A stretch of 59,929 nucleotides of DNA, from positions 1 through 59,929 of the forward strand of contig JAGOUR010000005.1 of assembly GCA_018061145.1 (NCBI GenBank). The letters run 5' to 3'. The number at the start of each line of letters is the position of its first letter. Positions within the stretch are counted from its first letter, which is position 1. The notes under the pieces are model-generated. The model was not told where the DNA came from, searched no databases, and saw nothing but the letters and a program-made list of their open reading frames with translations. Origin of the DNA: Minisyncoccota bacterium (lineage in GTDB: Bacteria > Patescibacteriota > Minisyncoccia > Phycocordibacterales > UBA9973). The position numbers and the translations under genes are program-made. This document shows, piece after piece, positions 4,351-31,962 of this stretch.

Positions 4351-4905
4351 ATGCTTTATACAAGAAAAGGGGACAACGGCACAACGAAAACTTTTGGTTG
4401 CGACCAGAGAATCTCCAAGAGTTCAAATATAGCAGAGGCCCTAGGTACACTCGATGAGATTAATTCTTTTCTAGGTGTATGCAAAGTAAAGAGTTCCGGT
4501 GCTGGATTTAAAGTTCCTACAGGTGAACTTTTTGAAAAAGTTGTACACGATGTACAGCAGAATCTTTTTATAGTACAAGCTGAACTCGCAGGTAGTGATA
4601 TGACGATAAGTGAAGATAAAGTAAAGGCAGTTGAAAACTATGTAGATACTATAGAAAAAGAATTGCCACCAATAAAATCTTTTTTTATTTCTGGGGGTAC
4701 AGAATTGGCGGCATTTTTTGATGTCGCTCGTACTATTTCACGCAGAGCAGAGAGGAGAGTGATAGGTGTGGCGGATGAGGGGAATGTAAAAGTGGGGGAT
4801 TATACAAAAGCGTATCTAAACCGACTTTCTTCACTACTTTATGCACTAGCTAGACTTTCTAACCACTTTTCTGGTATAAATGAGGAACCTCCTACTTATA
4901 AGTAG
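4351..4905 (+). CDS. PduO-type ATP:cob(I)alamin adenosyltransferase
   Basis: YTRKGDNGTT, ALGTLDEINSFLG, ARTISRRAERR, YLNRLSSLLYALAR. Confidence 0.93.
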   Translation: MLYTRKGDNGTTKTFGCDQRISKSSNIAEALGTLDEINSFLGVCKVKSSGAGFKVPTGELFEKVVHDVQQNLFIVQAELAGSDMTISEDKVKAVENYVDTIEKELPPIKSFFISGGTELAAFFDVARTISRRAERRVIGVADEGNVKVGDYTKAYLNRLSSLLYALARLSNHFSGINEEPPTYK

Positions 4906-4917
4906 GATTGTATATAT

Positions 4918-4990
4918 GGGGATTATGGTGTAACGGTTAACACTGAGGTTTGTGGAACCTTCGATCTGGGTTCGATTCCCAGTAGTCCCC
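4918..4990 (+). tRNA. tRNA-His(GTG)
   Basis: G-1 plus GGGATTA/TAGTCCC acceptor and C73, anticodon arm GAGGT-TTGTGGA-ACCTT, T-loop GGTTCGATTCC. Confidence 0.95.
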
Positions 4991-5300: not shown

Positions 5301-5324
5301 ACACTTTTCTGGTATATTTAATTT

Positions 5325-5921: not shown

Positions 5922-5970
5922 TAATAAAACCCCTCCAAACAGGAGGGGTTTTATTTGATATACTATGTGT

Positions 5971-6501: not shown

Positions 6502-6504
6502 TTT

Positions 6505-7404: not shown

Positions 7405-7411
7405 TCAGTTA

Positions 7412-14220: not shown

Positions 14221-15894
14221 ATGAGCCCAGAAACGAGAGCGTGCGTGAATTGCAAAGGGGAGTTCGTAATTGAACCAGAGGATTTTGTGTTCTATGAGAG
14301 GATGAAAGTCCCAGCTCCACATGTATGTCCTGATTGCAGGTTTAAAATGAGGGCTGTATGGAGGAATGAAATGTCTCTTTATACTGGGGTGCAGTGCGGT
14401 CTATGTGATAAATCTATCATTTCTATGTATAATCCAAAATCTGGATTTACTGTGTATTGCAATAGTTGCTATAGAGGGGATGGGTGGGATTCTCGCGAAT
14501 ATTCTGCGGATTATAATTTTTCTCGACCGTTTTTTGACCAGCTAAAAGATTTAATAAAAAAAGTACCAAAGAATTCCTTGTATAGTACTACTGGAGTAGG
14601 GCAGAGCGTGAATAGTGACTATACTAACTGCGGCGGAGGCTTAAAGAATTGCTCCCTTTGCTTTAATTCTTCTATTCTTGAAGATTCTATGTACACAAGA
14701 GGGGCTACTTATTCTAGTAATTTAATCGATTCGTATTTTTGTAAAAAAGTAGAAAATTGTTATGAATGTATAAATGTTCATAATAGTGTGGGAGTTAGAC
14801 ACGGACAGAATAGCGTAAACTGTATGGACTGTACATTTATAGAGAATTGTTCAAATTTGAACAATTGTATTGGCTGTGTAAATTTACGAAATAAAAGTTT
14901 CCATATTCTAAATAAAGAATATTCAAAGGAAGAATATTTTGAGATCTTAAATAAGATTAATTCTTCATATGTGGAATTTGTGAAATTTAAAGAAGAGTTT
15001 GAAAAACTAAGACTAGACCACCCTCATAGAGCAAATGAAAATATTAAAATTCAGGATTGTATCGGTGATTATATTTCTGAATCTAAAAATGTACATTATT
15101 CTTTTGAGATTATAAATGGAGAAGATTCAAAGTGGAATTTTTCTAGTCGAGAAATGAAGGATTGTTACGGAACAGTAGGGTATGGGATAAAATCAGAATT
15201 ACTTCTCGAGTGTACTTCTACAGGCTATGTGTCCAGAGGTATAGGGTGCTGGGCTTGTGAGATCGGATCTGATCTTGAGTATTCTATTTCTTGTTTTCCT
15301 AACAATAAAAATCTGATTGGATGTGATTCACTGAAGAATTCTCAGTATTGTATTCTTAATAAACAGTATTCAAAAGATGAATACGAAAAAATTCGAGACC
15401 ATATAATAAATGAATTAAAAGAAAAGAATTTATATGGATTGATGATGCCTCCAGATCTTGCACCTTTTGCCTACAACGAGACCATAGCCCAAGACAATAT
15501 GCCTATGAGCAGAGTTGATGCACTATCTCTAGGCTTTCGCTGGGAGGATGATATCCAGATTACAAAAGGCAAGGAGACATTGACCCCAGAGAGTATTCCA
15601 GACAATATAGATGATGTATCTGATGATATAAAGGGCGAAGTGCTCCGGTGTGTAGAATGTACTAGAAACTACAAAATAACCGAAGCTGAATTGTTATTCT
15701 ACCGCAAGATGAAATTGCCGATTCCTAGGTACTGTTTTTATTGTAGACACAAAGATAGATTGAACCGTCGTGGTCCGTATAAATTCTGGAATAGAAAATG
15801 TGATTTTTGCGGAGATGGTATCACTACTACCTACTCCCCAGATAGACCAGAAAAAGTGTATTGTGAGAAGTGTTATCAAAAAGAAGTATTGTAA
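14221..15894 (+). CDS. Cys-rich Zn-ribbon/repeat protein, paralog 1
   Basis: CVNC..CPDC, CGLC..CNSC, repeated NCxxCxxLxNKxY blocks, C-terminal CVEC..CFYC, CDFC..CEKCYQKEVL. Confidence 0.8.
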   Translation: MSPETRACVNCKGEFVIEPEDFVFYERMKVPAPHVCPDCRFKMRAVWRNEMSLYTGVQCGLCDKSIISMYNPKSGFTVYCNSCYRGDGWDSREYSADYNFSRPFFDQLKDLIKKVPKNSLYSTTGVGQSVNSDYTNCGGGLKNCSLCFNSSILEDSMYTRGATYSSNLIDSYFCKKVENCYECINVHNSVGVRHGQNSVNCMDCTFIENCSNLNNCIGCVNLRNKSFHILNKEYSKEEYFEILNKINSSYVEFVKFKEEFEKLRLDHPHRANENIKIQDCIGDYISESKNVHYSFEIINGEDSKWNFSSREMKDCYGTVGYGIKSELLLECTSTGYVSRGIGCWACEIGSDLEYSISCFPNNKNLIGCDSLKNSQYCILNKQYSKDEYEKIRDHIINELKEKNLYGLMMPPDLAPFAYNETIAQDNMPMSRVDALSLGFRWEDDIQITKGKETLTPESIPDNIDDVSDDIKGEVLRCVECTRNYKITEAELLFYRKMKLPIPRYCFYCRHKDRLNRRGPYKFWNRKCDFCGDGITTTYSPDRPEKVYCEKCYQKEVL

Positions 15895-15898
15895 AAAT

Positions 15899-17680
15899 AT
15901 GGAAACAAAAAACTGCCACCCCAAAGGAAAGAGTACTTCCTACGGGGCAGGAAACTGTAAAGAGAATTTTAACATCACACCCGATGATTTTTCCTTCTAT
16001 GAGAAAATAGGTGTCCCAGCCCCGACCTTTTGCCCAGAGTGTAGAATGCAGAGACGTCTAGCATGGAGAAATGAGAGAGGTCTGTACTTTCGAAAGAATG
16101 ACAAGCCTGGCTCCGAAGAAAAAATGATCTCTACTTACCCTGAGAGTATTCCTGTTTCCTCTTACGACAATACTTATTGGTGGAGTGATAGTTGGGATGC
16201 TATATCTTTTGGTTGCGAATATGATTTATCTCGAGATTTCTTTTCTCAGTATAAAGATCTTTTATATAGAACACCCCTGATTTCTTTTTTTGATAGCAAG
16301 GGTGTAAATAATCAATTTTGTAATTATATTACTGAGAGTAAAAATAATTATATGCTTTCTGCTGTTTGGACATGTGAAGATTCTATGTATTCAAACAGGA
16401 TATCATTTTGTCAGAATACAGTAGATTCATATATCAGCCACAAGCTAGATTTCTCGTACGAGGATATTTATTGTGGGGATTCGTCTCGATTGTTTTATAG
16501 CGAGAACTCATATAACTGTGTAAATTCATATTTTCTTTTTGACTGTAGGAATTGTACTGATTGTTTTATGTGTAATAGTTTGAGAAATAAATCTTATTGC
16601 ATAAACAATATTCAATACTCAAAAGATGAATATAAAGAAAAAATTAAAGAATTTAATTTGAGTAGTTATGCATCAATTCAAAATCATAAGGCATCATTTG
16701 AGTTATTAAAGAAAAATGCCATTAGGAAATACGCCCAGCTTACCAACTGTGTAAATGTGGTGGGGGATAATATGCAAAATGCAAAAGATGCATATTATTC
16801 TTTTGATCTGCCAGGGGGTGTCGAGAATATCAAATATTGTAACTGGGGGACTTTTGGATTGAAGGATTCATACGATGTCGGCCCTGGTGCAGGTGGAAAG
16901 TCAGAACTTACTTATGAGGGTATTAGTATCGGTGTAGCTAATAGTAATGTAAAATTTAGTGTCGTCGTCTGGAATTCTACTAATGTGGAGTATTCGTTTA
17001 ATTGCTATTCGTGCAATAATTGTTTTGGTTGTGTGAGTTTGAAAAATAAAAATTATTGTATATTAAACAAGCAATATGAAAAAGATGAATATTTTGAGTT
17101 GCTAGGCAGAATAAAAAAACAAATGAATGAAATCCCTTACCGTGACAGCATGGGGAATATCTATAAATATGGAGAATTTTTCCCTTTAGAGATTGCTCCT
17201 TATGCTTATAATGATACTGTTGCAGGGGACTTTTTCCCTTTGAGTGAAAATGATTTAGTTCAGAAAAATTTTCAATATATACCAAAAGTAAATAAACAAT
17301 ACAATATTACTGTTAAGTTTTCTGACTTGCCTGATTCAATCATTGATGTAAATGATTCTATCCTGAGTGAGATTGTAGAATGTAAAAATACAAACAATGA
17401 TAAGTATGTAACTTGCACCAAAGCTTATAAACTGAATGAAGCAGAAGTTTCTTTCTACAAGAGGCTCGGTATTCCACTGCCTCGAGTTTGTTATAGTTGT
17501 CGTCATGCGGACAGATTGTCAAAACGTAATCCAATGAAGCTTTGGCACCGTCAGTGTATGTGTAATTTAGATAACCATGATCACGCAGGGCAGTGTGAGG
17601 TAGAGTTTGAAACCAGCTACTCCCCAGACAGACCTGAAAAAGTGTATTGTGAGAAATGTTATCAAAAAGAAGTCTTGTAA
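15899..17680 (+). CDS. Cys-rich Zn-ribbon/repeat protein, paralog 2
   Basis: Same architecture. ATG 15899 lies 4 nt after the paralog 1 stop. First CxxC is interrupted by an 11-aa insertion. Confidence 0.8.
   Translation: METKNCHPKGKSTSYGAGNCKENFNITPDDFSFYEKIGVPAPTFCPECRMQRRLAWRNERGLYFRKNDKPGSEEKMISTYPESIPVSSYDNTYWWSDSWDAISFGCEYDLSRDFFSQYKDLLYRTPLISFFDSKGVNNQFCNYITESKNNYMLSAVWTCEDSMYSNRISFCQNTVDSYISHKLDFSYEDIYCGDSSRLFYSENSYNCVNSYFLFDCRNCTDCFMCNSLRNKSYCINNIQYSKDEYKEKIKEFNLSSYASIQNHKASFELLKKNAIRKYAQLTNCVNVVGDNMQNAKDAYYSFDLPGGVENIKYCNWGTFGLKDSYDVGPGAGGKSELTYEGISIGVANSNVKFSVVVWNSTNVEYSFNCYSCNNCFGCVSLKNKNYCILNKQYEKDEYFELLGRIKKQMNEIPYRDSMGNIYKYGEFFPLEIAPYAYNDTVAGDFFPLSENDLVQKNFQYIPKVNKQYNITVKFSDLPDSIIDVNDSILSEIVECKNTNNDKYVTCTKAYKLNEAEVSFYKRLGIPLPRVCYSCRHADRLSKRNPMKLWHRQCMCNLDNHDHAGQCEVEFETSYSPDRPEKVYCEKCYQKEVL
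15919..15951. repeat. 33-nt in-frame palindromic insertion
   Basis: CCCC-AA-AGGAA-AGAGTAC-TTCCT-AC-GGGG-CAGG. Removing it restores TGC CAA AAC TGT (CQNC), as in the paralogs. Confidence 0.65.
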
Positions 17681-17684
17681 AAAT

Positions 17685-19403
17685 ATGGAACATCAAACAG
17701 AAAACAAAGTGTGTCAGAATTGCAAAGGGGATTTCACTATCGATCCAGAGGATTTTGTGTTCTATGACAAGATCAAAGTCCCAGCACCTACATTCTGCTC
17801 AGAGTGTAGAATGATCAGGAGAATGATGTGGAGGAACAGTAGATCACTTCATCGAAGAGAATGTTTTATGTGCAAAAAATCATTGATCAGCATGTATTCT
17901 GATTCAGCTCCAATTAGTTGTTCTGATTGCTGGAATGGCACACAGAGAGATCCTTTTTCTAATGGAAAAGATTATGATTTTTCTCGTTCATTTTTTGATC
18001 AACTTAAAGAGCTTTTTGCTGTTTCTCCAAGATTTTTCTCATACCAATTTGGTACACTAGTGAATTCAGATTTTACTAACTTTTCAAAGGACAACAAGAA
18101 TGCTTATCTGTCGTATTCAGTTACGGATTGCGAAGATGTGATGTATTCAGAGACAATAGATAAATCAAAAAATAGTATGGATTGTTATGCCACCCAGAAA
18201 GCCGACGGCTGTTCATACAATGTGGATTGTGAGGGTAATTATAATACTCATTTTGCTGTGAAGTCTCAGAACTGTATTGATTCATACTTTGTTTATGATT
18301 GCTCAAATTGCCAGAATTGTTACCTGTCTTCAAACCTAAGGAATCAGCAATATTATTTTAAAAATCAGAAATTATCTAAAGAGGCTTATCAGGAAGCTAT
18401 TAGAGAATATAACCTAGGTAGTTATTCTGGTTTTGAAAAATCAAAAAAAGAATTCAATGAATTAATTTTAAATAATACTATTCATAAGTATGCTTTTATC
18501 TATTCAGCTCAAGATGTAACAGGGGATTATATTCACCATGCAAAGAATATAAAGAAATGTTTTGATACTAATGATGCTGAAAATATTGCTTATAGTGTTA
18601 GAGCCATTGAAGTGAAGGATTCATATGATCTAGGGGGTACTGGTTTTAAGGCTGAACTTATTTATGAATCAATGGCTGCAACTGCTAATACTGCTCGGGA
18701 TTTTTTCTGTTACTTAACTATCCAGGGCTGCACCGAGTGTGAGTATTCTTTAATTTTAAGAAATTGCACAAATTGTTTTGCTTGTGTGGGATTGATAAAT
18801 GCTAAATATTGTATTTTTAATAAACAATACACAAAGGAAGAATATGAAATTCTTGTTCCCCAAATAAAACAGCACATGATGGATATGCCATATGTAGACA
18901 AGAAGGGAAGAGTTTTTAGGTATGGAGAATTTTTCCCTTATGATATGTCTCCGTTTGGATACAACGAAACAAATGCCCATGACTTTTTCCAAAAGACAAA
19001 AGAGATGGCCATTGAAAGTGGTTTTAAATGGAAGGATAGAATAAAGAGAGAGTATGCTGTTACTAAACAGTCTCGAGATTTACCTGATCATATTGATGAA
19101 GTTGATGATAGTATTCTAGATGAAACGATATCTTGCCCGAATGATGGTAGTCCAGACTCACAATGTACTACTGCATTTAAAATCGTGCCGAACGAATTAA
19201 TGTTTTATAGACAAAAGAAATTACCATTACCTAGGTATTGTCCAAACTGCCGTCACTACGACAGATTAAAATATCGTAATTCAATGAAATTATATAAACG
19301 GGAATGTTCAAACGACTGCGGAACTATTTTCGAAACTACATACTCCCCAGACAGGCCTGAAAAAGTATTTTGCGAGAAGTGTTATCAAAAAGAAGTGTTG
19401 TAA
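17685..19403 (+). CDS. Cys-rich Zn-ribbon/repeat protein, paralog 3
   Basis: CQNCKGDF..VPAPTFCSECR start and PEKVFCEKCYQKEVL end. ATG 17685 lies 4 nt after the paralog 2 stop. Confidence 0.8.
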   Translation: MEHQTENKVCQNCKGDFTIDPEDFVFYDKIKVPAPTFCSECRMIRRMMWRNSRSLHRRECFMCKKSLISMYSDSAPISCSDCWNGTQRDPFSNGKDYDFSRSFFDQLKELFAVSPRFFSYQFGTLVNSDFTNFSKDNKNAYLSYSVTDCEDVMYSETIDKSKNSMDCYATQKADGCSYNVDCEGNYNTHFAVKSQNCIDSYFVYDCSNCQNCYLSSNLRNQQYYFKNQKLSKEAYQEAIREYNLGSYSGFEKSKKEFNELILNNTIHKYAFIYSAQDVTGDYIHHAKNIKKCFDTNDAENIAYSVRAIEVKDSYDLGGTGFKAELIYESMAATANTARDFFCYLTIQGCTECEYSLILRNCTNCFACVGLINAKYCIFNKQYTKEEYEILVPQIKQHMMDMPYVDKKGRVFRYGEFFPYDMSPFGYNETNAHDFFQKTKEMAIESGFKWKDRIKREYAVTKQSRDLPDHIDEVDDSILDETISCPNDGSPDSQCTTAFKIVPNELMFYRQKKLPLPRYCPNCRHYDRLKYRNSMKLYKRECSNDCGTIFETTYSPDRPEKVFCEKCYQKEVL

Positions 19404-20093: not shown

Positions 20094-20122
20094 TTGGCAT
20101 GGTTTTGGTCGGGCGGTATAAT
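20094..20122 (+). promoter_or_regulatory. Sigma70-type promoter of nrdJ
   Basis: TTGGCA-17 nt-TATAAT. Confidence 0.6.
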
Positions 20123-20172: not shown

Positions 20173-22542
20173 ATGCCATCAAAAAAGAAAGTAGTTAAGG
20201 CTGCAAAAAAAGTGAAAGTGGTCGCGAAAAAAGTAGAGGTTGTAGAGAAAGTAGAAGCAACTCCTGTTAAAAAAACAGAAATAAAAATAAAGAATAATTT
20301 TATTAAAAGCGTTCAACGTCGTGATGGATCAACTGTTCCATTTGATATTGAAAAAATTACGAATGCTATTAATAAAGCTATGCTTGCGGCAGGAGAAGGC
20401 TCTATCGAAGAGGCTCATCTAGTGGCTAGTCGTGTATTGATGGACATGATCAAGATCGCAAAGAAGTACAAAAACTTTGTACCTACAGTAGAGGGTATCC
20501 AGGATAGTGTAGAGCAGGAGCTCATGCTCTCCGATTATGTAAAGACTTCAAAGCACTACATCCTATACCGTGAAGAACGTGCTCGTCTCCGATCACACAG
20601 CATGTCTGTTCCTCCGCATGTGAAGCAACTCGCAGATGAAAGTAAAAAATATTTCAGGAATCCACTTTCTGAATTCGTGTATTACCGTACTTATGCAAAA
20701 TGGATCGAAGAGCAGGGTAGACGTGAGACATGGATCGAGACAGTAGATCGCTATATGTCATTCATGAAGGGGAAGCTTGGAGATATGTTATCTGTAGATG
20801 AATATGCAGAAGTGCGCGAAGGAATTCTCAGGCAAGAAGCAATGCCATCAATGCGCCTGCTTCAGTTCGCAGGTCCTGCAGCAGAGAAGACAAATGTATG
20901 TGCATACAACTGTTCATTTATCGCACCGTCAAAACTTCAAGATTTTGGTGAGATAGTCTACATCTCTATGTGTGGTACTGGAGTAGGATTCTCTGTGGAG
21001 AGTCAGAACATTCAATCTCTTCCTCAGATCAAAACTCAGACAGGAAAAAAGCAGTCTACATACGTGGTTCCTGATACAAAAGAGGGTTGGGCAGACGCAC
21101 TCGTATTTGGTATGAAGACATGGTTCAACGGAGAGGATGTTGATTTCGATTTTTCTCTATTGCGTCCTTCTGGTGCACGTCTCAAGATCATGGGAGGCAA
21201 GAGCTCTGGTCCAAAACCATTGATAGACCTACTCGGATTTACTCGTGAGAGAATTCTGCGCCGCCAAGGCCGACATCTTCGCAATATCGATGCGCACGAT
21301 ATCATCTGTAAAATAGGTGAGTGTGTAGTGTCTGGAGGTGTACGTCGTTCTGCACTTATCTCACTATCAGATCTAGATGATCAGGACATGCGTGATGCAA
21401 AGAATGGTCAATTTTGGAACAATGAAGGCCAGAGAATGCTCGCAAATAACTCTGCTGTATACAATACAAAACCTACAGAAACAGAATTCCTAAGAGAGTG
21501 GATTGCACTTATGGAGTCAGGTACAGGAGAGCGTGGAATATTTAATCGTGGATCACTATATACATCACTACCAAAGAGGCGAGTAGAAAAGTCCCGTGAC
21601 TTTATCGGAGAGATGGGTACAAACCCTTGTGGGGAGATTATCCTCCGCTCAAAACAGTTCTGCAATCTTTCAGAAGTTGTAGCCCGTGCAGAAGATACAG
21701 AGAAGACTTTGATGAAGAAGATCCGTATCGCTACAATTCTAGGAACATACCAATCAACACTTACAAAATTCGGGTACCTTTCAAAGGAATGGAAGGAGAA
21801 TTGTGACGAGGAGAGACTCCTAGGGGTTTCAGTTACTGGTCAGTGGGATTCGACTTTGGCGCGTGATGCAAAGATGCTAGAAAAGCTCCGCCTAGAAGCT
21901 ATCCGTATAAACAAGATTTATGCAAAGAAATTTGGTGTTAGTGAATCTACTTGCATCACAGCCGTGAAGCCTTCTGGTACTGTATCTCAGACTGTGGATT
22001 GTGCATCTGGTATGCACCCACGTCATGCTCCGTACTATATCCGTCGTGTTCGTATCTCTGCTACAGACTCACTATTCAAAATGATGAAGGACCAAGGTGT
22101 GCCATATCATGCAGAGGTGGGGCAGAATGCAGAAGATGCAAATACTTTTGTTCTAGAATTCCCAATGAAAGCCCCAGATGGTGCGATATGTAAAGATGAT
22201 ATATCTGCTATTGATCAGCTAGAGCACTGGAAGGTTGTAAAGGTAAACTATACAGAGCACAACCCATCTGTGACTATATCAGTGGGGGAGAATGAATGGA
22301 TCAAAGTAGCACACTGGCTATATCAGAACTGGGACATCGTAGGTGGACTGTCCTTCCTACCACGTTCAAATCATGTGTACCAGCTAGCTCCATATGAGGC
22401 GATAACAAAAGAGACATTTGAACAGCTGGCAAGTCGCATGCCTGACTTTGATTTCTCAAAGATCGTGACTTATGAACTACGCGATGAGACTGAGGTAAAG
22501 AAAGAGTTGGCTTGTGTTGCAGGAGTTTGCGATATTGTGTAA
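20173..22542 (+). CDS. nrdJ: Class II (adenosylcobalamin-dependent) ribonucleotide reductase, RTPR type, with ATP cone
   Basis: ATP cone (VQRRDGSTVPFD..IQDSVE), RRETW, YNCSF, GGVRRSALI, GTNPCGEI, KPSGTVSQ, C-terminal ACVAGVC. Confidence 0.92.
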   Translation: MPSKKKVVKAAKKVKVVAKKVEVVEKVEATPVKKTEIKIKNNFIKSVQRRDGSTVPFDIEKITNAINKAMLAAGEGSIEEAHLVASRVLMDMIKIAKKYKNFVPTVEGIQDSVEQELMLSDYVKTSKHYILYREERARLRSHSMSVPPHVKQLADESKKYFRNPLSEFVYYRTYAKWIEEQGRRETWIETVDRYMSFMKGKLGDMLSVDEYAEVREGILRQEAMPSMRLLQFAGPAAEKTNVCAYNCSFIAPSKLQDFGEIVYISMCGTGVGFSVESQNIQSLPQIKTQTGKKQSTYVVPDTKEGWADALVFGMKTWFNGEDVDFDFSLLRPSGARLKIMGGKSSGPKPLIDLLGFTRERILRRQGRHLRNIDAHDIICKIGECVVSGGVRRSALISLSDLDDQDMRDAKNGQFWNNEGQRMLANNSAVYNTKPTETEFLREWIALMESGTGERGIFNRGSLYTSLPKRRVEKSRDFIGEMGTNPCGEIILRSKQFCNLSEVVARAEDTEKTLMKKIRIATILGTYQSTLTKFGYLSKEWKENCDEERLLGVSVTGQWDSTLARDAKMLEKLRLEAIRINKIYAKKFGVSESTCITAVKPSGTVSQTVDCASGMHPRHAPYYIRRVRISATDSLFKMMKDQGVPYHAEVGQNAEDANTFVLEFPMKAPDGAICKDDISAIDQLEHWKVVKVNYTEHNPSVTISVGENEWIKVAHWLYQNWDIVGGLSFLPRSNHVYQLAPYEAITKETFEQLASRMPDFDFSKIVTYELRDETEVKKELACVAGVCDIV

Positions 22543-22558
22543 GATAAAAAAACTTATG

Positions 22559-22680
22559 ATCCCGTTAGAAGTCATGCATGTTATTCTAGCTACGGATTTT
22601 ATTTGAAGAAATTAGTTATATTCGAGTTTATTAGTTAAATTATGTACGATACTCTAAAGAGTATCTACTTCTAACGGGAT
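22559..22680. mobile_element. Short inverted-repeat (MITE/REP-like) element
   Basis: Perfect 14-bp IR ATCCCGTTAGAAGT (22559-22572) / ACTTCTAACGGGAT (22667-22680), with an inner GATACTCT-AA-AGAGTATC hairpin. Confidence 0.6.
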
Positions 22681-23200
22681 GAAAAAAAATCCGATAAAAT
22701 ATACTACTTTGTTTATAGTGGGGCTAGTTGTTAGACTGTTGCCATTTAGAGCTCCAAATCTGGAGCCTCTGATGGCTATGGTTATGCCGTTGTCTCGTAC
22801 ATACGGTAGATTGTATTCATTCCTCTTTGGGTTTTTGTCTGTGGCTGTGTACGACATGTTTACAGTAGGATTTGGTGTATGGACACTATTTGCAGGTATT
22901 GCCTATGGATTAGTTGGTCTTGCTGCCTCTTTCTATTTCCAGAATCGTACAGGATGGAAGAACTATGCTAAATTCGCATTCTTCGCGACGATAGTATTTG
23001 ATGTCGTTACAGGTCTATCTATGGGTCCACTATTCTTTGGGCAGTCATTCATGGCGGCAATAGTAGGTCAGATACCATTCACGGCCATTCATTTGCTTTC
23101 AAATGTATCCTTTGCTATAGTTCTATCACCAATGATTGAAAGATGGGTAGAAAAGGAAAGTACCGTAGTCGCCATCATTCCCGAGGTTGTCAGAGTGTAA
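22679..23200 (+). CDS. ECF-type S-component, probable cobalamin substrate (CbrT-like)
   Basis: ~6 TM helices, RLLPFRAPNLEP..G..D..GFGVWT..YG pattern, located between nrdJ and a B12 riboswitch. Confidence 0.7.
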   Translation: MKKNPIKYTTLFIVGLVVRLLPFRAPNLEPLMAMVMPLSRTYGRLYSFLFGFLSVAVYDMFTVGFGVWTLFAGIAYGLVGLAASFYFQNRTGWKNYAKFAFFATIVFDVVTGLSMGPLFFGQSFMAAIVGQIPFTAIHLLSNVSFAIVLSPMIERWVEKESTVVAIIPEVVRV

Positions 23201-23207
23201 TTCATTT

Positions 23208-23307
23208 AAAATTTAAGTTTATATGTTTGGAAGTGAGGTCATATTCCTCCACTGTGCCGCAACGGTAAAGCTCGCAAGAGACAAGTCCGATCTTAATATA
23301 TAAATTG
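23208..23307 (+). ncRNA. Cobalamin riboswitch aptamer
   Basis: GGAA-GTGAGG-TCATATT-CCTC-CAC-TGTGCCGCAACGGT-AA...AAGTCCGA matches the B12-box core. Closing stem AAGTTTATAT/ATATAAATT. Confidence 0.8.
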
Positions 23308-23345
23308 TTCACCCGAGCAGGAAATCTCTTTGTAAAAAAGGATAT

Positions 23346-23373
23346 AAAAACTTCTGCCCGTGCAGGAGTTTTT
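23346..23373 (+). terminator. Riboswitch expression-platform terminator
   Basis: AAAAACTTCTGC-CCGT-GCAGGAGTTTTT, ending 25 nt before the downstream ATG. Confidence 0.7.
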
Positions 23374-23398
23374 ATTATTTAATATGCATTAAATTATT

Positions 23399-23920
23399 AT
23401 GAAAAATAAATATATTAAAATATTTTTGTTCGCTGTCCTGGCTGTGCTGTTTATTGCTTTCTTTTATCAATATTCTAAAAAAGTTATCAATTCTGAATCA
23501 GTAGTGAATACTACACCTAAAATAGAGGCCCCAAAGCTAGTACCGAGAAAAACTGAAAGTTCCAAAAAAGTTACTTCTAAAATTTCAGAAGTAAAAGAAA
23601 TAATTCCAGAAGTAGATACGAATAAGATAAGTATTAAAATAATAGTCGAAGACAAGGTATACGAATCGAGGGCATCAGAAGGGATGAGTATATACCAATC
23701 AATGGTAGATCTATCTACTCAGAATAAAAATTTTACTTTTACGTCAAAAGACTATAGTGGTATGGGTATGTTCGTAGATAGTATTAATGGTGTACAAGGT
23801 AATGAGGGTAAATATTGGGTGTATTATTTAAATGACAAAAAAGCATCTGTGGGTATATCCAAGAATTTTTTGAAAGAGGGTGATACTGTGCGATGGGAGA
23901 GAGAAGGTTTTATTAATTAA
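23399..23920 (+). CDS. Membrane-anchored DUF4430 / transcobalamin beta-domain-like protein
   Basis: N-terminal TM, YSGMGMFVDSINGVQ..KYWVYYLNDKKASVGISKNFLKEGDTVRW pattern. Confidence 0.8.
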   Translation: MKNKYIKIFLFAVLAVLFIAFFYQYSKKVINSESVVNTTPKIEAPKLVPRKTESSKKVTSKISEVKEIIPEVDTNKISIKIIVEDKVYESRASEGMSIYQSMVDLSTQNKNFTFTSKDYSGMGMFVDSINGVQGNEGKYWVYYLNDKKASVGISKNFLKEGDTVRWEREGFIN

Positions 23921-23972
23921 AGGATATGAATCCTGTTGTAATCTGTGATCGCAATTAAATATAAATAATAAT

Positions 23973-26018
23973 ATGAAAAAAAATATATTTTCTATCTTAA
24001 TAATACTCGGTTTTATTTTCTCAGGATTTTTTGTATATGCAGAAGATTCTAATCCGACAGATCAAAATACTGGAAATCCGCAAGTAGAAGAGACTCAGAA
24101 TCCAACATCAGCCCCACTAGAAGAGCAGTCTCCGGTACAAGAAATTCCTACAGAAGAACAGCCTCCGGTAGAGCAAAATCAAGCTGAAGAACCTGCACCA
24201 ATTTTGTATGAAAATATATTTATTCGTAATGGTGCGGATGTTGTGTATAGTGGGGATATTGCTCTACCTCCAGAAGGGAATATAGATATACTAGATAATG
24301 TGGGAGTATCCCACTCTGTGAATTCTCGTAGTGTGCTCGGTGTGCTATACACTCTCGATCAAACAGAAGATTCTTTCTCACTTTCTAGTCTGCAGTACTA
24401 TGATTCTTTTTCTTCTTTTTATTTGAAATGTTTAAATACAAATTCATCCGGAGAAGCGTGTGATAATTGGCAGTATGTAGTAGGAGGTGCTAGTCCTTGG
24501 ACAAGTATCGATGCAACTATTCTCTCAGGAGGAGAAAATATTGGTTTGTATTTTGGTAGTCCATACAAGGTAGACTTAGATACTAATACAATCACAACTA
24601 CTGGGTTCATAACTGCACAGGCAAAATCTTATAATTACACAGACGATACATGGGTGGTGCGTACAGGTGTGCATATCGGCATAACCCAGACAAATCCGCA
24701 TGACCCATGGAGCCCAACCGTAATATCAACTACGTCTGTAGATGATATTGGTAGAGCGGATCTTTCTTTCTCAATTCCCGGTACCTACAATATAGGAGTA
24801 TCAGAGGATTATTATTTCCCATCTTATTCTGTTTCTGTCGCGGAGTCTGTATCTTCCGGGGGTTCAAATAGTGCTCCTGTTGTAGTAGCTTTTTCAAAAG
24901 AAAATGCAGTAGCTTTTTTAAATGCCAATAAAAAATCAGATGGGTCTCTGGGTGCATCATTGTATACGGACTGGGGGGCTGTCGCTATCGGATCTACTGG
25001 TGACTCAGCTCTGATTGAAAGCATCGCTGTATATCTAACATCAAATAATTTTACATCAAGCACTGTGACTGACAATGAGCGCCATGCGATGGCCCTGATG
25101 TCCCTCGGCATAAATCCATACAGTGGGACAAGCGTAGATTATATCTCAAAAATTGTAGGAAAATTTGATGGAGTCCAGATAGGGGATGTGAACCTGGATA
25201 ATGATGATATCTTTGGTCTAATTGTTTTGAAAAAAGCTGGGTATTCATATAAAGATGAGATAGTCGCCAATACTATTGATTTTATAAAAACTAAACAATA
25301 CCCAAATGGGTCTTGGGATAATAGTGCCGATATGACATCTGCTGCGATAATGGCACTGTCTCCTTTTAAAAATAAAAATGGAGTCTCAGATTATATAGAC
25401 AAAGCTTATATTTATCTAACCAGCAATCAATCTTCTGATGGGCGTATAGGTGACAATGTATCTTCTACAAGCTGGGCTATACAGGCACTATCACTCGGAT
25501 CTGAATTTTCATCTGCTTTGTCCAATGCTAGAAATTATGTATCATCACAGCAGAAAAGTGATGGCGGTGTGGGTGATATAGGTAGTGACGTAGATTCACG
25601 TGTCTGGGCTACATCTTATGCACTAACAGCAGAATCACTCAAATCATGGATAGACATACTGTCTGACTTTGAGAAGCCTGCAGTCACAGAAATAGTAAAA
25701 ACTTCAGGTGAAGATAATGTGGAAATTATTCCTGCTGTTATCATTCCTATTGTTCAAGAAAAAATTGTACCGATTACTCCAGTCATCCAAGAAACTAAAA
25801 AAGAAATAAAAAAAGAAGAAGTAAAAAAACAAAATAAAGAAGTAAAAAAGATAACACCTGTCGTTAGGAATGATATTGTGGATAGTCCTGTGCCATCAAA
25901 AAATAACCTAGTAGCAAGTGCGAGTTCTGCGCCGTTTGTATCTAAAATACCCGCAATCACAAGGGTTGTGTGGCATAATATTACAACATTTTTTGGTTTA
26001 ATTTTTAATTTCTTTTAA
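23973..26018 (+). CDS. Secreted protein with DUF4430-like domain and prenyltransferase/squalene-cyclase (alpha/alpha barrel) repeats
   Basis: Signal peptide, Q/E/P linker, NWQYVVGG..GENIGLYF, repeats FL..NKKSDGS, FI..KQYPNGSW, YL..NQSSDG, YV..QQKSDGG, K/E-rich tail. Confidence 0.72.
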   Translation: MKKNIFSILIILGFIFSGFFVYAEDSNPTDQNTGNPQVEETQNPTSAPLEEQSPVQEIPTEEQPPVEQNQAEEPAPILYENIFIRNGADVVYSGDIALPPEGNIDILDNVGVSHSVNSRSVLGVLYTLDQTEDSFSLSSLQYYDSFSSFYLKCLNTNSSGEACDNWQYVVGGASPWTSIDATILSGGENIGLYFGSPYKVDLDTNTITTTGFITAQAKSYNYTDDTWVVRTGVHIGITQTNPHDPWSPTVISTTSVDDIGRADLSFSIPGTYNIGVSEDYYFPSYSVSVAESVSSGGSNSAPVVVAFSKENAVAFLNANKKSDGSLGASLYTDWGAVAIGSTGDSALIESIAVYLTSNNFTSSTVTDNERHAMALMSLGINPYSGTSVDYISKIVGKFDGVQIGDVNLDNDDIFGLIVLKKAGYSYKDEIVANTIDFIKTKQYPNGSWDNSADMTSAAIMALSPFKNKNGVSDYIDKAYIYLTSNQSSDGRIGDNVSSTSWAIQALSLGSEFSSALSNARNYVSSQQKSDGGVGDIGSDVDSRVWATSYALTAESLKSWIDILSDFEKPAVTEIVKTSGEDNVEIIPAVIIPIVQEKIVPITPVIQETKKEIKKEEVKKQNKEVKKITPVVRNDIVDSPVPSKNNLVASASSAPFVSKIPAITRVVWHNITTFFGLIFNFF

Positions 26019-26044: not shown

Positions 26045-26632
26045 ATGTTTAAAACAAAACAAAATATATTCATCGTGTCTGTTGTCGCTATTATTATATT
26101 GATTATGGGTGTTGGTTTTATTGTTGAAAAGACTGCAAAACCTGGAAAGTATGATGCTTTTGCACAAGCTCTCAAATCTGAGGGTGCAGTATTCTACGGT
26201 GCATTCTGGTGTCCGCATTGTCAGGCTACAAAAGCTCTTTTTGGTAGTTCTAAAAAGTATGTACCGTATGTAGAATGTTCTACTCCTGATTCACGGGGTC
26301 AGACAAATGAGTGCAAGGCTAATAAAGTAGAGAGTTACCCGTCTTGGACATTCAAGAATGGTATAACATTGAAATCTTCCGACCCAAAGCCTCTTGCTTG
26401 TGCTCCTAGTCCTACTGGGGCAAAGATTGAGGGGGAGCCTGCTGTCTGTGCAAATATACATTCAGAGTACGCAAAAGTTTGGGTATTTTCAAATTATAAA
26501 TTCTCAATAAAGTCAGAAAAAGATCCAGTTCAAAATGGTGATGTTTGGAATTTTGATAGCAGTGCTATGGCTGTAGGTGAGATACCACTTGAATTTTTGG
26601 CCGAACAGATAAAGTTTACTCTACCTCAATAA
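26045..26632 (+). CDS. Membrane-anchored thioredoxin/DsbA-like oxidoreductase
   Basis: YGAFWCPHC active site, YVECS, cis-Pro loop SYPSW. Confidence 0.85.
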   Translation: MFKTKQNIFIVSVVAIIILIMGVGFIVEKTAKPGKYDAFAQALKSEGAVFYGAFWCPHCQATKALFGSSKKYVPYVECSTPDSRGQTNECKANKVESYPSWTFKNGITLKSSDPKPLACAPSPTGAKIEGEPAVCANIHSEYAKVWVFSNYKFSIKSEKDPVQNGDVWNFDSSAMAVGEIPLEFLAEQIKFTLPQ

Positions 26633-26633
26633 T

Positions 26634-27179
26634 ATGCCTACTTACGTACCTACATTGAATTATATATTGTCTCTAGGGACGATTTTCATACAGCTTTTTT
26701 GCTTTACTATTTTTGGAGCACTTTTGTTTTTTAGAAAAAAAGATAATGTGTTTTTGAAATTTTTGCACGACTACACATTTATAATTGGATTCCTAACTGC
26801 ATTTGGTGCTATGGCAATTAGTTTATTCTATTCAAATGTGATTGGATTTCCAGCCTGTGAATTGTGTTGGATGCAGAGAATATTTATCTATCCACAAGTT
26901 ATTCTTTTTGGTATGGAGCTCTGGAAGAGGGAGAAGGTGATAGTGGACTACGCACTAGTTCTCGCATTTATAGGCAGTATAATATCACTATTCCATATAT
27001 ATGTAGAACATGGAGGAGCGTCAAATCTCGCTTGTGCTACGGGTAGTGCTACCGAGGTGTCATGCGCAGTACGATATGTATATGAATTCTCTTATGTATC
27101 TATCCCTGTTATGGCGCTGTCTATGGGGGTATTCTTGATGTTGATACTTTGGAATTATAAATACATCTCAAGAGCATAA
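26634..27179 (+). CDS. DsbB/BdbC-family disulfide bond formation protein
   Basis: PACELCWMQRIFIYP, second Cys pair (LAC..VSC), 4-5 TM helices. Confidence 0.88.
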   Translation: MPTYVPTLNYILSLGTIFIQLFCFTIFGALLFFRKKDNVFLKFLHDYTFIIGFLTAFGAMAISLFYSNVIGFPACELCWMQRIFIYPQVILFGMELWKREKVIVDYALVLAFIGSIISLFHIYVEHGGASNLACATGSATEVSCAVRYVYEFSYVSIPVMALSMGVFLMLILWNYKYISRA

Positions 27180-28486: not shown

Positions 28487-30235
28487 ATGAATAAAGAAGT
28501 GCGTCAATGCCAGAACTGCAAGGAGGATTTCACTATAGAAACCGAGGATTTTGTGTTTTATGACAAGATAAAAGTCCCACCGCCTACATTTTGCCCGGAG
28601 TGCAGGTGTATTCGACGCATGATTCACCGTAATGAAAGACACTTATTCCGGAGGACTTGTGATGTTACTGGTAAAAGTATTATTTCTATTTACCCACCAG
28701 AATCTCCATACACAGTTTGTGATAAGGATTATTATTTTTCAGATGCTTTTGACCCATTTAAATACGGATCGGTTTATAATCCTGATTTAAAATTTTTTGA
28801 GCAGTTTTATGAATTTGCAAAAAAAGTCCCACTCACATCTTTATTTGTTAGAATTTCAGAAAAATGTGAGTACAATCAGGATATGAGTAATTCGTCGAAT
28901 TGCTACCTCTGTTTTAGAACACACGATTCTCAAAATATGTTTTATACATATCGAGGGAATAAATCAAATAATTGTTTTGATTGTTTTCAAGCTGTTATTT
29001 CCTCTGAATTCCTGTATGAATGTGTCGATGTATCTACTTGTAATAATAGTCGGTTTTTAAGTTCTTGTGAAAAATGTTCTGATTCAGCTTTTCTGTATAA
29101 CTGTACTGGTTGTGTTGATTGTTTTATGTGTACTGATCAGAGGAATAAACAATGTTATTTTAAAAACCAGCAATACTCCAGAGAAGAATATAAGAAGATA
29201 ATTGATTCATATAACCTTTCTACTTATGAGGGGCAGAAAAAAGCCTTGTCTGAATTTGAAGAATTTTTAAAACAAAAACCAAGAAAAAATTTAACAATAA
29301 TCCGTTCAGACAATGTAACAGGTGATAATATCACTGATTCCAAGGATGCCAAATATGTTTTTAATGTAAAATCCTTGCAAAACTGTTCATATATTTGGGA
29401 CTCATTTAGATTTACTGATTCAATGGATACATATTCTGGTGCTGGGTCTGAGTTGTTATATGAGACTACTGCTACAACTGCCCATAGTAGCAACTGTCGT
29501 TTTTGCGTCAGGGTTCATGAAGGGTCTCGTGACTGTGAGTATAGTTGGTTTCTCCAAAATTGTTCAAGTTGTTTTGGTTGTATTGGGCTTAAGAATCAGG
29601 AATATTGTATTTTTAATGTTAAATACAATAAAGATGAGTACGAAGAACTTGTCGGTAGAATTAAAAATAAGATGCTAGAAGATCGTGAATACGGCGAATT
29701 CTTCCCAGCTTATACTTCACCGTTCGCTTATAATAATACAGTAGCCCATGAATTTTTCCCCATGGCCAAAGAGACTGCTCTTGAGGCGGGTTTTGGTTGG
29801 AAAGATTTAGAAGATAAGAATTATGTTGCTAACGTTGATTCTGTTGATTTGCCGGGTGATATTTCTAATGTTGGTGATGATATTTTAAATCAGATAATTT
29901 CTTGTTCACATAAAGGGGGGTGTGGGCATGGTTGCACTAAGGCATTTAAAATTGTGGCTGATGAACTTTCTTTTTATCGAAATAAAAAAATACCAGTACC
30001 GCATGAATGTCCTAACTGCAGGCATTATCGCAGATTAGAAACTCGTAATCCGACAATGCTACGTGATACAAAATGTATGTGTGAGGGTGATGGAGTATGT
30101 AATGATGTCTATAAAAATACTATTCCTCATGAGCATGGGGCTGGTCCTTGTGGTAAAAAATTGCAAACATCAATAAGAGAAGATAGTAATTTCATAGTTT
30201 ATTGTGATAGTTGTTATAAAAAAGAAGTATTTTAA
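28487..30235 (+). CDS. Cys-rich Zn-ribbon/repeat protein, paralog 4
   Basis: CQNCKEDF..VPPPTFCPECR start and VYCDSCYKKEVF end. Confidence 0.8.
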   Translation: MNKEVRQCQNCKEDFTIETEDFVFYDKIKVPPPTFCPECRCIRRMIHRNERHLFRRTCDVTGKSIISIYPPESPYTVCDKDYYFSDAFDPFKYGSVYNPDLKFFEQFYEFAKKVPLTSLFVRISEKCEYNQDMSNSSNCYLCFRTHDSQNMFYTYRGNKSNNCFDCFQAVISSEFLYECVDVSTCNNSRFLSSCEKCSDSAFLYNCTGCVDCFMCTDQRNKQCYFKNQQYSREEYKKIIDSYNLSTYEGQKKALSEFEEFLKQKPRKNLTIIRSDNVTGDNITDSKDAKYVFNVKSLQNCSYIWDSFRFTDSMDTYSGAGSELLYETTATTAHSSNCRFCVRVHEGSRDCEYSWFLQNCSSCFGCIGLKNQEYCIFNVKYNKDEYEELVGRIKNKMLEDREYGEFFPAYTSPFAYNNTVAHEFFPMAKETALEAGFGWKDLEDKNYVANVDSVDLPGDISNVGDDILNQIISCSHKGGCGHGCTKAFKIVADELSFYRNKKIPVPHECPNCRHYRRLETRNPTMLRDTKCMCEGDGVCNDVYKNTIPHEHGAGPCGKKLQTSIREDSNFIVYCDSCYKKEVF

Positions 30236-30237
30236 GC

Positions 30238-31962
30238 ATGGAGAATCAATCAGAAAAAAGAATATGCCAGAATTGTAAAGGGGAATTCACCATTGAATCT
30301 GAGGATTTTGCGTTTTATGACAAGATAAAAGTCCCACCGCCTACATTTTGCTCTGACTGCAGGTTGCAGCGTCGACTCTCTTTTCGCAATACCCACTCTC
30401 TTTATAAAAGAAAAGATTCTTTCAATGGTAAAGATATTCTTTCCATATATTCACCAGATAAAAAATTAGTAGTTATTGATCAAAAAGATTGGTGGAAGGA
30501 TGGGTGGGATCCTTTTGATTATGGTGTAGATTATGATTTTTCGAAATCTTTCTTCTCTCAGTGGAAAGAATTGAGAGATACTGTTCCTCTACAAAGTTTA
30601 TCCAATTCCAAGGCTGTAAATAGTGAGTATTGTAATGTTGCTGAAGAAAGTTATGATTGCTATCTTATTTCTGCTTCTTGGAAATGCGAGAGAGTTATGT
30701 ATTCTGATTCAATACATATAATAAAAGATTCAATGGATCTTCATGTTGTATTTAGGTCTGAATTTTGTTATGCAGATGTTTCTTGTGCTGATTCGTATAG
30801 ATTGTTTTATAGCCAAGATTCATATGCGTGCACAGATTCATACTTTTTATACGATTGCCGTGGGTGCACTGATTGTTTTATGAGCTCTAATCTGCGAAAT
30901 AAGAGCTATGTATTCAAAAATGAACAGCTATCTAAAGAAGCATATAAAGAAAAAATTAAAGAATTAAACTTGGGAAGTTTTACCGAAATTCAAGAATTTA
31001 AAAAAGAATTTAATGATATGAAGCTAAATTCAGTTCATCGATTTGCCCAAATTTTGAATTCCTATAATGTTACTGGCGATAATGTCGATCATGCAAAAAA
31101 TTGCTCGTATTGTTTTAATGTTACTGATGGGCTTGAAGATTGTAAAAATATTTTTTGGGGTGGCATGAAAGCAAAAGAAGTATTTGATAGTGGTCCTGGA
31201 GTAGGGGATGGTCAGCTTATGTATGAAGTGTTCGATACTGGTATTGGAGCTTTTAAAAATCTTTTTACAAGTGTTGTCTACAATAGTATAGATGTAGAAT
31301 ATTCATTTAATTGTTATAACTGCTCTTATTGCTTCGGTTGTTTGGGTTTACGGAATAAAAAATTTTGTATTTTGAATAAGCAATATACGAAAGAGGAGTA
31401 CGAAGATATTTTACCCAAAATAAAAAAACATATGAGCGGTATGCCGTATGTTGATAATCAAGGCAGGATTTACAAGTATGGAGAATTTTTCCCAGTTGAA
31501 TTGTCTCCGTTTTGTTACAACGAAACAGTTGCTCAAGAATATTTTCATTTATCAAAAGAGCAAGCAATATCTCAAGGTTTTTTATGGAAAGATAAAGAGG
31601 TGCGTTCTTATATGCCTACAATTAATTCCGCAGATTTACCTGACGACATACAAGACGCTTCAGAAGATATTTTAAATGATATTATTCTATGTGGTCATAA
31701 AGGGGAATGTGCCGACAGGTGTACCTCTGCCTTTAAAGTAACGAGAGACGAACTATCTTTTTACAAGAGGTTTGATATACCGATTCCTCGTTTATGCTAC
31801 GGATGTAGATTTGCTCAATATTTTAAAATGAGAAATCCTTTAAAGCTCTGGAACAGAAAATGCATGCACGAAGGTTGTGATAATGAATTCCAGACTAGCT
31901 ACGCCCCAGATCGCCCAGAGATTATTTATTGTGAAAAGTGTTATCAGCAGGAAGTGATTTAA
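30238..31962 (+). CDS. Cys-rich Zn-ribbon/repeat protein, paralog 5
   Basis: CQNCKGEF..VPPPTFCSDCR start and PEIIYCEKCYQQEVI end. Starts 2 nt after paralog 4. Confidence 0.8.
   Translation: MENQSEKRICQNCKGEFTIESEDFAFYDKIKVPPPTFCSDCRLQRRLSFRNTHSLYKRKDSFNGKDILSIYSPDKKLVVIDQKDWWKDGWDPFDYGVDYDFSKSFFSQWKELRDTVPLQSLSNSKAVNSEYCNVAEESYDCYLISASWKCERVMYSDSIHIIKDSMDLHVVFRSEFCYADVSCADSYRLFYSQDSYACTDSYFLYDCRGCTDCFMSSNLRNKSYVFKNEQLSKEAYKEKIKELNLGSFTEIQEFKKEFNDMKLNSVHRFAQILNSYNVTGDNVDHAKNCSYCFNVTDGLEDCKNIFWGGMKAKEVFDSGPGVGDGQLMYEVFDTGIGAFKNLFTSVVYNSIDVEYSFNCYNCSYCFGCLGLRNKKFCILNKQYTKEEYEDILPKIKKHMSGMPYVDNQGRIYKYGEFFPVELSPFCYNETVAQEYFHLSKEQAISQGFLWKDKEVRSYMPTINSADLPDDIQDASEDILNDIILCGHKGECADRCTSAFKVTRDELSFYKRFDIPIPRLCYGCRFAQYFKMRNPLKLWNRKCMHEGCDNEFQTSYAPDRPEIIYCEKCYQQEVI

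Follow-up and report, generated by a model that had tools for sequence, protein, structure and literature searches.

The window analyzed here is a stretch of 59,929 nucleotides (contig JAGOUR010000005.1 of assembly GCA_018061145.1, from a Minisyncoccota bacterium), and the subject of our analysis is a gene cluster on its + strand. The order in this cluster is nrdJ, which encodes a class II ribonucleotide reductase (RNR) dependent on adenosylcobalamin (AdoCbl); the gene for a membrane protein with the fold of an energy-coupling factor (ECF) S-component; an AdoCbl riboswitch; an intrinsic terminator; the gene for a small DUF4430 protein; the gene for a surface protein of 681 amino acids (aa) with an alpha/alpha toroid; and the genes for a thioredoxin-like (Trx-like) and a DsbB-like protein. 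The gene for a PduO-type cob(I)alamin adenosyltransferase lies 15 kb upstream of the cluster in the same window. We consider it likely that the cluster is a corrinoid (B12) acquisition-and-use unit of a B12-auxotrophic Parcubacteria cell, with its genes in a single transcription unit that contains a checkpoint. The preliminary description of this DNA had listed nrdJ, the S-component, the riboswitch, the two surface proteins and PduO, and all of them were found at the coordinates it had claimed (Table 1). Sequence resembling the window is present in wastewater and freshwater metagenomes.

Conservation of the cluster

We compared 80 related loci from Parcubacteria, Paceibacterota and Nomurabacteria that contain the S-component gene, and found the gene order kept across them in two arrangements. 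Arrangement A, found in the closer relatives, has the order nrdJ, S-component, riboswitch, DUF4430, toroid, Trx-like and DsbB-like, as in the window; arrangement B, found in the more distant relatives, has S-component, nrdJ and pduO, with or without the riboswitch, DUF4430 and toroid genes. The S-component gene adjoins a gene for a B12-dependent RNR in 74 of the 80 loci, and in 73 loci this gene is an nrdJ of the window type. The pduO gene lies inside the cluster among the arrangement-B relatives, and 23 of the 80 loci have it there. The one locus of the 74 with another type of RNR (L077, positions 4702-8519) carries the same S-component family together with a dimeric-type class II RNR (PF08471, PF02867 and TSCPD) and an adenosyltransferase of the BtuR/CobA type (E = 5e-53); both the RNR and the adenosyltransferase are swapped at this locus for non-orthologous equivalents while the S-component is retained.

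The nrdJ product of the window is composed of an ATP-cone, RNR_Alpha, the B12-RNR insertion domain PF21995 (37.7 bits, cutoff 27) and the RNR barrel PF02867 (27.1 bits, cutoff 23.9). Its score with the ribonucleoside triphosphate reductase (RTPR) model TIGR02505 is 290 bits, under the cutoff of 340, and the protein has an extra ATP-cone.

The riboswitch and its terminator

The riboswitches of two relatives score 60.3 and 50.4 bits with Rfam model RF01482, and our own covariance model, built from three Rfam-confirmed copies, matches the window at 23201-23335. One copy of the riboswitch is present in each of 56 loci, where it always lies on the coding strand with the DUF4430 gene immediately after it, and in none of these loci is it upstream of nrdJ or the S-component gene. 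It is found in 50 of the 53 loci with a DUF4430 match; the six riboswitch matches without a DUF4430 match are truncated by contig ends, and the arrangement-B loci that have no DUF4430 gene have no riboswitch either. It follows the S-component gene in arrangement A, starting in the window 3 nt past the stop codon, and it follows pduO in arrangement B. When the 56 distinct copies of the aptamer are aligned, 95% of the cells are paired and 13 pairs have changed on both sides; the covariation score was reached by none of 500 shuffles, with slid controls far lower. A hairpin with a U-tract comes after the aptamer in 43 of 57 copies with stem sequences that differ, and the terminator is conserved in structure, not in sequence.

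The riboswitch and terminator of the window lie after the S-component gene and therefore cannot regulate nrdJ or the S-component gene. Because the riboswitch is always upstream of the DUF4430 gene and never of the other two, it would gate the capture proteins only, and the anatomy of the terminator is suggestive of ligand-dependent control of their expression. The sigma-70-like site upstream of nrdJ is a candidate promoter for the whole unit, and no other strong terminator lies between this site and the riboswitch terminator. The most economical reading is a single transcription unit with an AdoCbl-controlled attenuator, for which we infer both the promoter and the read-through. The idea of a chain of capture, import, adenosylation and use, already put forward in the preliminary description, draws its strength from the adjacency to the RNR, the pduO genes inside the cluster, the exchange of enzymes at L077 and the presence of the riboswitch before the capture genes.

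The S-component, the surface proteins and neighboring features

The AlphaFold model of the S-component (pTM, the predicted template-modeling score, 0.78; 28 homologues) was used to search the PDB with Foldseek. The top 16 matches are all ECF S-components, with probability 1.0 and TM-scores of 0.56-0.66 except for 3p5n (probability 0.99, TM-score 0.40), and on the strength of this model we regard the six-helix S-component fold as settled. The sole Pfam match above threshold is the riboflavin S-component model PF07155, which is marginal at 27.4 bits with a gathering score of 26.7; DUF6580 is below threshold. An exhaustive HMMER search of 1.84 billion proteins gave a family of only 277 representative clusters, the distant members of which mostly have no Pfam match or shade into PF07155 or DUF6580, and by these comparisons the S-component belongs to a small undescribed family. 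The absence of ECF A and T components from the window, noted earlier, is confirmed by the finding of no EcfT/CbiQ or EcfA among the window proteins scanned; the single ATP-binding cassette (ABC) ATPase of the window belongs to an HlyD-FtsX-ABC set. EcfT and EcfA are also unseen in the sampled flanks of the relatives.

The small DUF4430 protein has an N-terminal transmembrane (TM) segment at about aa 5-24, followed by a Lys-, Ser- and Glu-rich linker of about 50-80 aa and a transcobalamin-beta-like domain at aa 107-167 (the Pfam match, nt 23717-23899); with PF14478 above threshold and the TM segment in place, its earlier description as a membrane-anchored DUF4430 protein stands. A homologue search with this protein gave five matches, and the family alignment was built from the loci instead. 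The top PDB match of the resulting profile is the transcobalamin beta domain (2BB6, 331-408), which is not significant (E = 0.43).

In the AlphaFold model of the 681-aa protein, a beta domain, an immunoglobulin-like (Ig-like) domain and the alpha toroid follow one another in an order that, as modeled, is the reverse of transcobalamin. The counts given here for this family refer to 70 members. The N-terminal domain of the window protein has no direct Pfam match; DUF4430 (PF14478) matches this domain in nine members, and the match maps to window residues 159-195, which lie in a strongly conserved stretch with the invariant C153, C163 and W166. It appears to be a divergent SLBB/DUF4430 domain. 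The receptor had been described as split between the two surface proteins, which must be revised: the 681-aa chain holds both the beta and the alpha domains, and it is accompanied by the 173-aa protein, an additional paralogue with the beta domain alone. The toroid is matched by SQHop_cyclase_C in 68 members, by Cobalamin_bind (PF01122) in 40 (E < 0.01, best E = 1.8e-11) and by the complement thioester domain (TED) in 40; some homologues exceed the PF01122 threshold (P0130 with 27.9, P0147 with 26.3 and P0153 with 25.4 bits). Among the larger members (P0141, P0145 and P0150, 894-950 aa), some have a tandem pair of SLBB/DUF4430 domains ahead of the toroid and others an N-terminal Ig-like PF16403 domain, and the N-terminal region of the capture protein is modular and variable. 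Two of these, P0141 and P0150, are not fusions of the small and the large protein; they contain tandem SLBB domains of the large-protein type. Long open reading frames in L026, L031 and L039 were likewise rejected as natural fusions of the two genes, an internal stop being present and the reading frame merely shared.

The Trx-like and DsbB/BdbC-like genes are kept as a pair 3' of the toroid gene in most arrangement-A relatives, and we infer that their products may form the C153-C163 disulfide of the secreted beta domain. A second disulfide-forming system is represented in the window by a VKOR homologue (3921-4349), which ends 2 nt before pduO.

Table 1. Coordinates of the cluster, of the domains of the 681-aa protein and of other features of the window
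Feature	Position	Strand	Basis or remarks
PduO-type cob(I)alamin adenosyltransferase	4351..4905	+	PF01923, E = 7e-44; TIGR00636, 149 bits (cutoff 108)
Cys-rich paralogues (five)	14221-15894, ~15900-17680, 17607-19403, 28487-30235, 30238-31962		
Sigma-70-like promoter candidate for the whole unit, TTGGCA-17-TATAAT	20094..20122	+	11/12 consensus matches only
nrdJ, class II AdoCbl-dependent RNR, RTPR-like, N-terminal ATP-cone, 789 aa	20173..22542	+	PF03477, PF17975, PF21995, PF02867
MITE-like insertion, ~120 nt, 13-bp terminal inverted repeats TCCCGTTAGAAGT / ACTTCTAACGGGA	22557..22682	+	empty sites in relatives, hairpin
ECF S-component-fold membrane protein, candidate corrinoid importer, 173 aa	22679..23200	+	PF07155, fold, context
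AdoCbl riboswitch aptamer RF01482	23203..23330	+	50.5 bits (gathering score 50)
Riboswitch expression platform: intrinsic terminator with 14-bp stem, CCGT loop and U-tract	23344..23385, stem 23344-23375	+	
Membrane-anchored DUF4430/SLBB protein, 173 aa	23399..23920	+	PF14478, E = 4e-13, 49.9 bits (threshold 23.8)
Secreted, C-terminally anchored protein, 681 aa	23973..26018	+	AlphaFold, predicted local distance difference test (pLDDT) above 90 in folded parts
681-aa protein: signal peptide	aa 1-23		
681-aa protein: disordered acidic segment	aa 24-75		
681-aa protein: SLBB/DUF4430-like beta domain, one helix	aa 79-200, nt 24207-24572		invariant C153, C163, W166
681-aa protein: beta-sandwich (Ig-like)	aa 205-290, nt 24585-24842		
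681-aa protein: 12-helix alpha/alpha toroid	aa 305-562, nt 24885-25658		
681-aa protein: disordered stalk, ~85 residues	aa 573-658		
681-aa protein: C-terminal TM helix	aa 661-680, nt 25953-26012		
Membrane-anchored thioredoxin-like protein, CPHC motif, BdbD/DsbA-like	26045..26632	+	PF00085, 20.6 bits, below gathering score
DsbB/BdbC-like disulfide oxidoreductase	26634..27179	+	PF02600, E = 1.6e-11; NF002849, E = 1.7e-24

An insertion resembling a miniature inverted-repeat transposable element (MITE) sits exactly at the S-component start codon. Its target, TGA, is duplicated, and the ATG of the S-component gene is rebuilt from the last A of the element and the duplicated TG. The element is present at this site in L005, L085 and L086 and absent from it in L006 and L007, and a diverged copy (L087:980-~1102) lies on an unrelated 72-kb contig, likewise at the start of another gene. 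The predicted hairpin of the element (-37 kcal/mol, z = -3.9) falls between nrdJ and the S-component gene.

The B12 cluster is flanked on both sides by genes for Cys-rich paralogues, five in all and about 560-640 aa long. Each end of these proteins bears CxxC zinc-ribbon-like motifs, and all five share the C-terminus ...SPDRPEKV[YF]CEKCYQKEVL. No Pfam family matched the two that were scanned (15770-17680 and 17607-19403), and a homologue lies directly 5' of nrdJ in about 25 related genomes. In some relatives a histidine-phosphatase (His_Phos_1) gene is located between pduO and the riboswitch or just 5' of the S-component gene (L063:11583-12218, L082:12096-12728 and L064:6203-6841); we make no claim that these encode CobC (alpha-ribazole phosphatase), as phosphoglycerate mutase scores similarly and both are far below their cutoffs. 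The 57 long open reading frames of the window end with TAA in 44 cases, TAG in 12 and TGA in one, and because these frames are long and leave little space between them when read with table 11, TGA is avoided rather than visibly reassigned.

Alternative explanations

Several points, given here together with the explanations that draw on them, weigh against a corrinoid role of the cluster. The binding and transport of B12 by these families of the candidate phyla radiation (CPR) are predicted roles. With respect to regulation, an alternative pairing of the invariant CCCGAGCAGGA motif with the 5' arm of the terminator has -3 to -11 kcal/mol, compared with -7 to -30 for the terminator, and is weak as an antiterminator; read-through from nrdJ and the S-component gene is presumed from a promoter that is a consensus match only; and the RNA data are sparse. 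Run X25, a wastewater metatranscriptome, gave six fragments (21552-22577); every one falls within the 3' half of nrdJ and the riboswitch-gated genes have none, which is suggestive yet far too sparse to interpret. Coverage by run X20 is even across the cluster, and this run may include DNA.

For the S-component, the nearest folds are FolT, HmpT and RibU, the S-components for folate, hydroxymethylpyrimidine and riboflavin. Its best sequence match in the PDB is chain A of 6FNP, a 182-aa chain titled 'Membrane protein' that is presumably CbrT; this match is not significant with the single sequence (E = 0.028) and was lost in the search with the family profile (E = 7.4), so that an identification as CbrT was rejected. 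CbrT is outside the top 50 fold matches of Foldseek, and BtuM was never matched in the PDB at E <= 10 by either the sequence or the family profile. The expectation that the S-component would fall into a B12 family was not borne out by these searches. The preliminary description had named clustering with a non-B12 family as grounds for giving up the B12 assignment; our result comes close to that, yet we judge it to be outweighed by the genomic context.

It is on these matches that a different substrate could be argued, namely that the S-component imports a non-corrinoid compound (folate, riboflavin, a pyrimidine/nucleoside or a queuosine precursor) and that its adjacency to nrdJ reflects nucleotide metabolism. 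The nearest solved folds, the one Pfam model above threshold and the failure of the family profile to reach CbrT or BtuM all agree with such a role, as do the position of the S-component outside riboswitch control and six of the 80 loci in which its gene lies beside unrelated genes, for example those for a carbamoyltransferase or FolB. We regard it as unlikely, since the adjacency is kept at L077, where the RNR is of another subtype and the adenosyltransferase of another type, pduO shares the cluster in the 23 loci mentioned above, the B12-regulated capture genes come immediately downstream, and the fold of an S-component is no guide to its substrate; for CbrT, too, the assignment came from a like context (PMC5997447). 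The S-component is a candidate B12 importer solely through its genomic context, by the same reasoning that was used for CbrT.

The ECF-CbrT role in B12 transport was predicted by Rodionov et al. 2009. In Lactobacillus delbrueckii, CbrT was assigned to B12 from the cluster nrdJ-cbrS-cbrT-pduO and its transport of cobalamin was subsequently demonstrated (Santos et al. 2018, PMC5997447; PDB 6FNP). Our S-component shows the same clustering with nrdJ and a corrinoid adenosyltransferase, its gene standing, as in L. delbrueckii, alongside a class II RNR and PduO in a B12 auxotroph. Unlike CbrT, it has no significant sequence relation to that protein and no ECF module is visible in its window, while CbrT needs one; beyond what is found in L. 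delbrueckii, the CPR cluster includes riboswitch-gated transcobalamin-like surface proteins. The other comparison is BtuM, a solitary S-component-like B12 transporter with an invariant cobalt-ligating cysteine (Rempel et al. 2018, PMC6072759; PDB 6FFV). Both are small proteins of the S-component fold with B12 import, here proposed, and no visible ECF module; unlike BtuM, the CPR family has no detectable BtuM similarity and no invariant or near-invariant Cys among 28 members.

These two precedents frame the question of whether the S-component acts alone, and that clause of the proposal is the only one affected if the protein is of the ordinary group II type, docking onto an EcfAA'T module that is shared and encoded elsewhere. 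We give this about an even chance. Action of the S-component alone, like the suggestion in the preliminary description that corrinoids may be taken from a host surface, is speculative. Docking is the usual mode of most S-components, it is required by CbrT in the closest analogous cluster (PMC5997447), and such modules are normally encoded far from the S-component genes, with only 60 kb of the genome visible here; on the other side are the lack of EcfT and EcfA in the window and in the sampled flanks of relatives and the existence of solitary S-components, BtuM and some BioY (PMC6072759).

With respect to the surface proteins, the link of the N-terminal domain of the 681-aa protein to DUF4430 is weak at the sequence level. 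The small protein aligns to this domain in the same register with E = 0.008 in BLASTP and E = 0.011 (probability 3.7%) in hhalign, and BLASTP between the two window proteins gave no match. The specific placement of the toroid with transcobalamin could not be upheld either: PF01122 scores 16.3 bits in the window protein, under the cutoff of 25, and what the profile of the family finds in the PDB is squalene-hopene cyclase (E = 2.4e-14), not transcobalamin. The whole-chain Foldseek search of the PDB returned complement C3/TEP/alpha-2-macroglobulin proteins and terpene cyclases with no transcobalamin in the top 50, a result that indicates the fold class only, as a sequential aligner penalizes the reversed domain order. 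The toroid is a generic QW-repeat toroid, which squalene-hopene cyclase and the complement TED match at least as well as transcobalamin.

NCBI names homologues of the 681-aa protein (for example P0171, P0188, P0219 and P0237) 'terpene cyclase/mutase family protein'. This name, the SQHop_cyclase_C matches in nearly the whole family and the profile match to squalene-hopene cyclase would fit an enzyme, a terpene cyclase/mutase or a prenyltransferase. We find this very improbable: the DxDD motif of the class II cyclases is replaced by S-x-D-M, with D453 invariant and the flanking acids absent; there is one toroid instead of two; and a signal peptide, a stalk predicted to be disordered, a TM anchor, a fused SLBB-like domain and B12 riboswitch control all characterize the protein. 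Because DxDD is degenerate and the protein is secreted and B12-riboswitch-controlled, the NCBI name is probably misleading for these surface proteins.

The sole experimental data on bacterial transcobalamin-like alpha/beta pairs point to heme, and they come from Lactobacillus sakei, where the ECF operon lsa1836-1840 encodes a separate beta-like protein (Lsa1839) and alpha-like protein (Lsa1840) (bioRxiv 10.1101/864751). Both systems combine an S-component with extracytoplasmic transcobalamin-like beta and alpha modules and include a stand-alone beta protein; the L. sakei operon, which also contains the ECF A and T genes, truly divides alpha and beta between two proteins, whereas in the CPR cluster one chain holds both modules and there is an extra beta protein. 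By analogy with the proposal for the L. sakei pair, the ligand of the DUF4430 and toroid proteins might then be heme or some other tetrapyrrole or cofactor instead of B12, and a toroid that is not specifically transcobalamin-like by sequence or fold would allow this. An AdoCbl-class riboswitch with a terminator, present before these genes in nearly all loci that have them, would be an odd regulator for heme, and the cluster partners, NrdJ and PduO or BtuR, are B12-specific; a heme role thus seems to us quite unlikely.

Known systems and proposed function

Mammalian transcobalamin, intrinsic factor and haptocorrin (PF01122 and DUF4430) have an N-terminal alpha domain and a C-terminal beta domain that clamp one cobalamin between them. 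The 681-aa protein shares this design of two modules, an alpha/alpha toroid and a beta-grasp SLBB-like domain, and unlike the mammalian proteins it has them in reversed order, with an Ig-like domain between them and a membrane anchor. Bacterial transcobalamin-like proteins in which SLBB is fused to an alpha/alpha toroid, in either order, were described by Burroughs, Balaji, Iyer and Aravind in 2007, who predicted B12 scavenging and noted that these proteins often have a second SLBB paralogue in the operon in hosts without B12 synthesis (PMC1796856). The proteins described here are likewise secreted or anchored, combine an SLBB-like domain with a toroid and have a paralogous SLBB protein in the same operon. 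The 2007 examples are found beside CbiO/CbiQ (ECF A/T) in Firmicutes and archaea, while the Patescibacteria cluster is found beside nrdJ, an orphan S-component gene and pduO, and for it an AdoCbl riboswitch is now documented in >50 genomes. A functional analogy exists with the extracellular cobamide relay of Bacteroides (BtuJ/BtuH/BtuG-BtuB), in which several riboswitch-controlled surface B12 binders also feed a membrane transporter (PMC13616437, PMC6143338, PMC8941943); its proteins are unrelated (beta-propeller, DUF4465) and work in an outer-membrane, TonB-dependent setting. Our literature searches found no publication on this CPR system. The architecture and its predicted role were largely anticipated in 2007 (PMC1796856), and analogous Lactobacillus clusters are known; what is new in Patescibacteria is the combination of a distinct S-component family, a riboswitch confined to the capture genes in >50 genomes, the lack of A/T genes nearby and the conserved Trx-like/DsbB pair.

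We propose that the parts of the cluster work together as follows. The nrdJ and S-component genes would be transcribed from upstream of nrdJ; when AdoCbl is sufficient, transcription would stop at the terminator, and when it is scarce, it would read through into the capture genes. The Trx-like and DsbB-like products would probably make the conserved disulfide of the secreted beta domain. On its stalk, the 681-aa protein would clamp a corrinoid between beta domain and toroid as transcobalamin does, with the domains reversed, and the membrane-proximal 173-aa DUF4430 protein may hand it on to the importer. The S-component would import the corrinoid, energized by an ECF module whose genes lie in another part of the genome or, as for BtuM, by none. 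PduO would adenosylate the corrinoid, and the AdoCbl formed would serve NrdJ in deoxynucleotide synthesis and feed back on the riboswitch.

Such a design would have the cofactor user and the importer transcribed regardless of supply, with the costly surface capture proteins alone induced by shortage. Because the AdoCbl riboswitch precedes the DUF4430 and toroid genes in >50 genomes, these loci provide what we consider the cleanest genomic evidence so far that bacterial DUF4430 and toroid proteins handle corrinoids. To our knowledge, the 2007 prediction that they are B12 scavengers has never been tested biochemically. The analysis also flags a likely database misnomer in 'terpene cyclase/mutase family protein', and the S-component family is a candidate new B12 transporter family. 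We hold tentatively, as a possibility well short of probable, that it is a third, Patescibacteria-centered family of S-components that imports B12 without an ECF module and has no sequence relation to CbrT or BtuM, fed by a two-tier transcobalamin-like relay in which the stalked SLBB and toroid protein catches the corrinoid and the membrane-proximal SLBB protein shuttles it, with an operon-internal AdoCbl attenuator that brings out the relay in B12 starvation alone; if this were true, an ultra-small cell would have a minimal B12 economy free of ATPases. The genomes of Parcubacteria and other members of the CPR are tiny, and these bacteria cannot make most cofactors. If the sole RNR of such a cell needs AdoCbl, the supply of B12 limits DNA synthesis, and the cluster would secure that supply.

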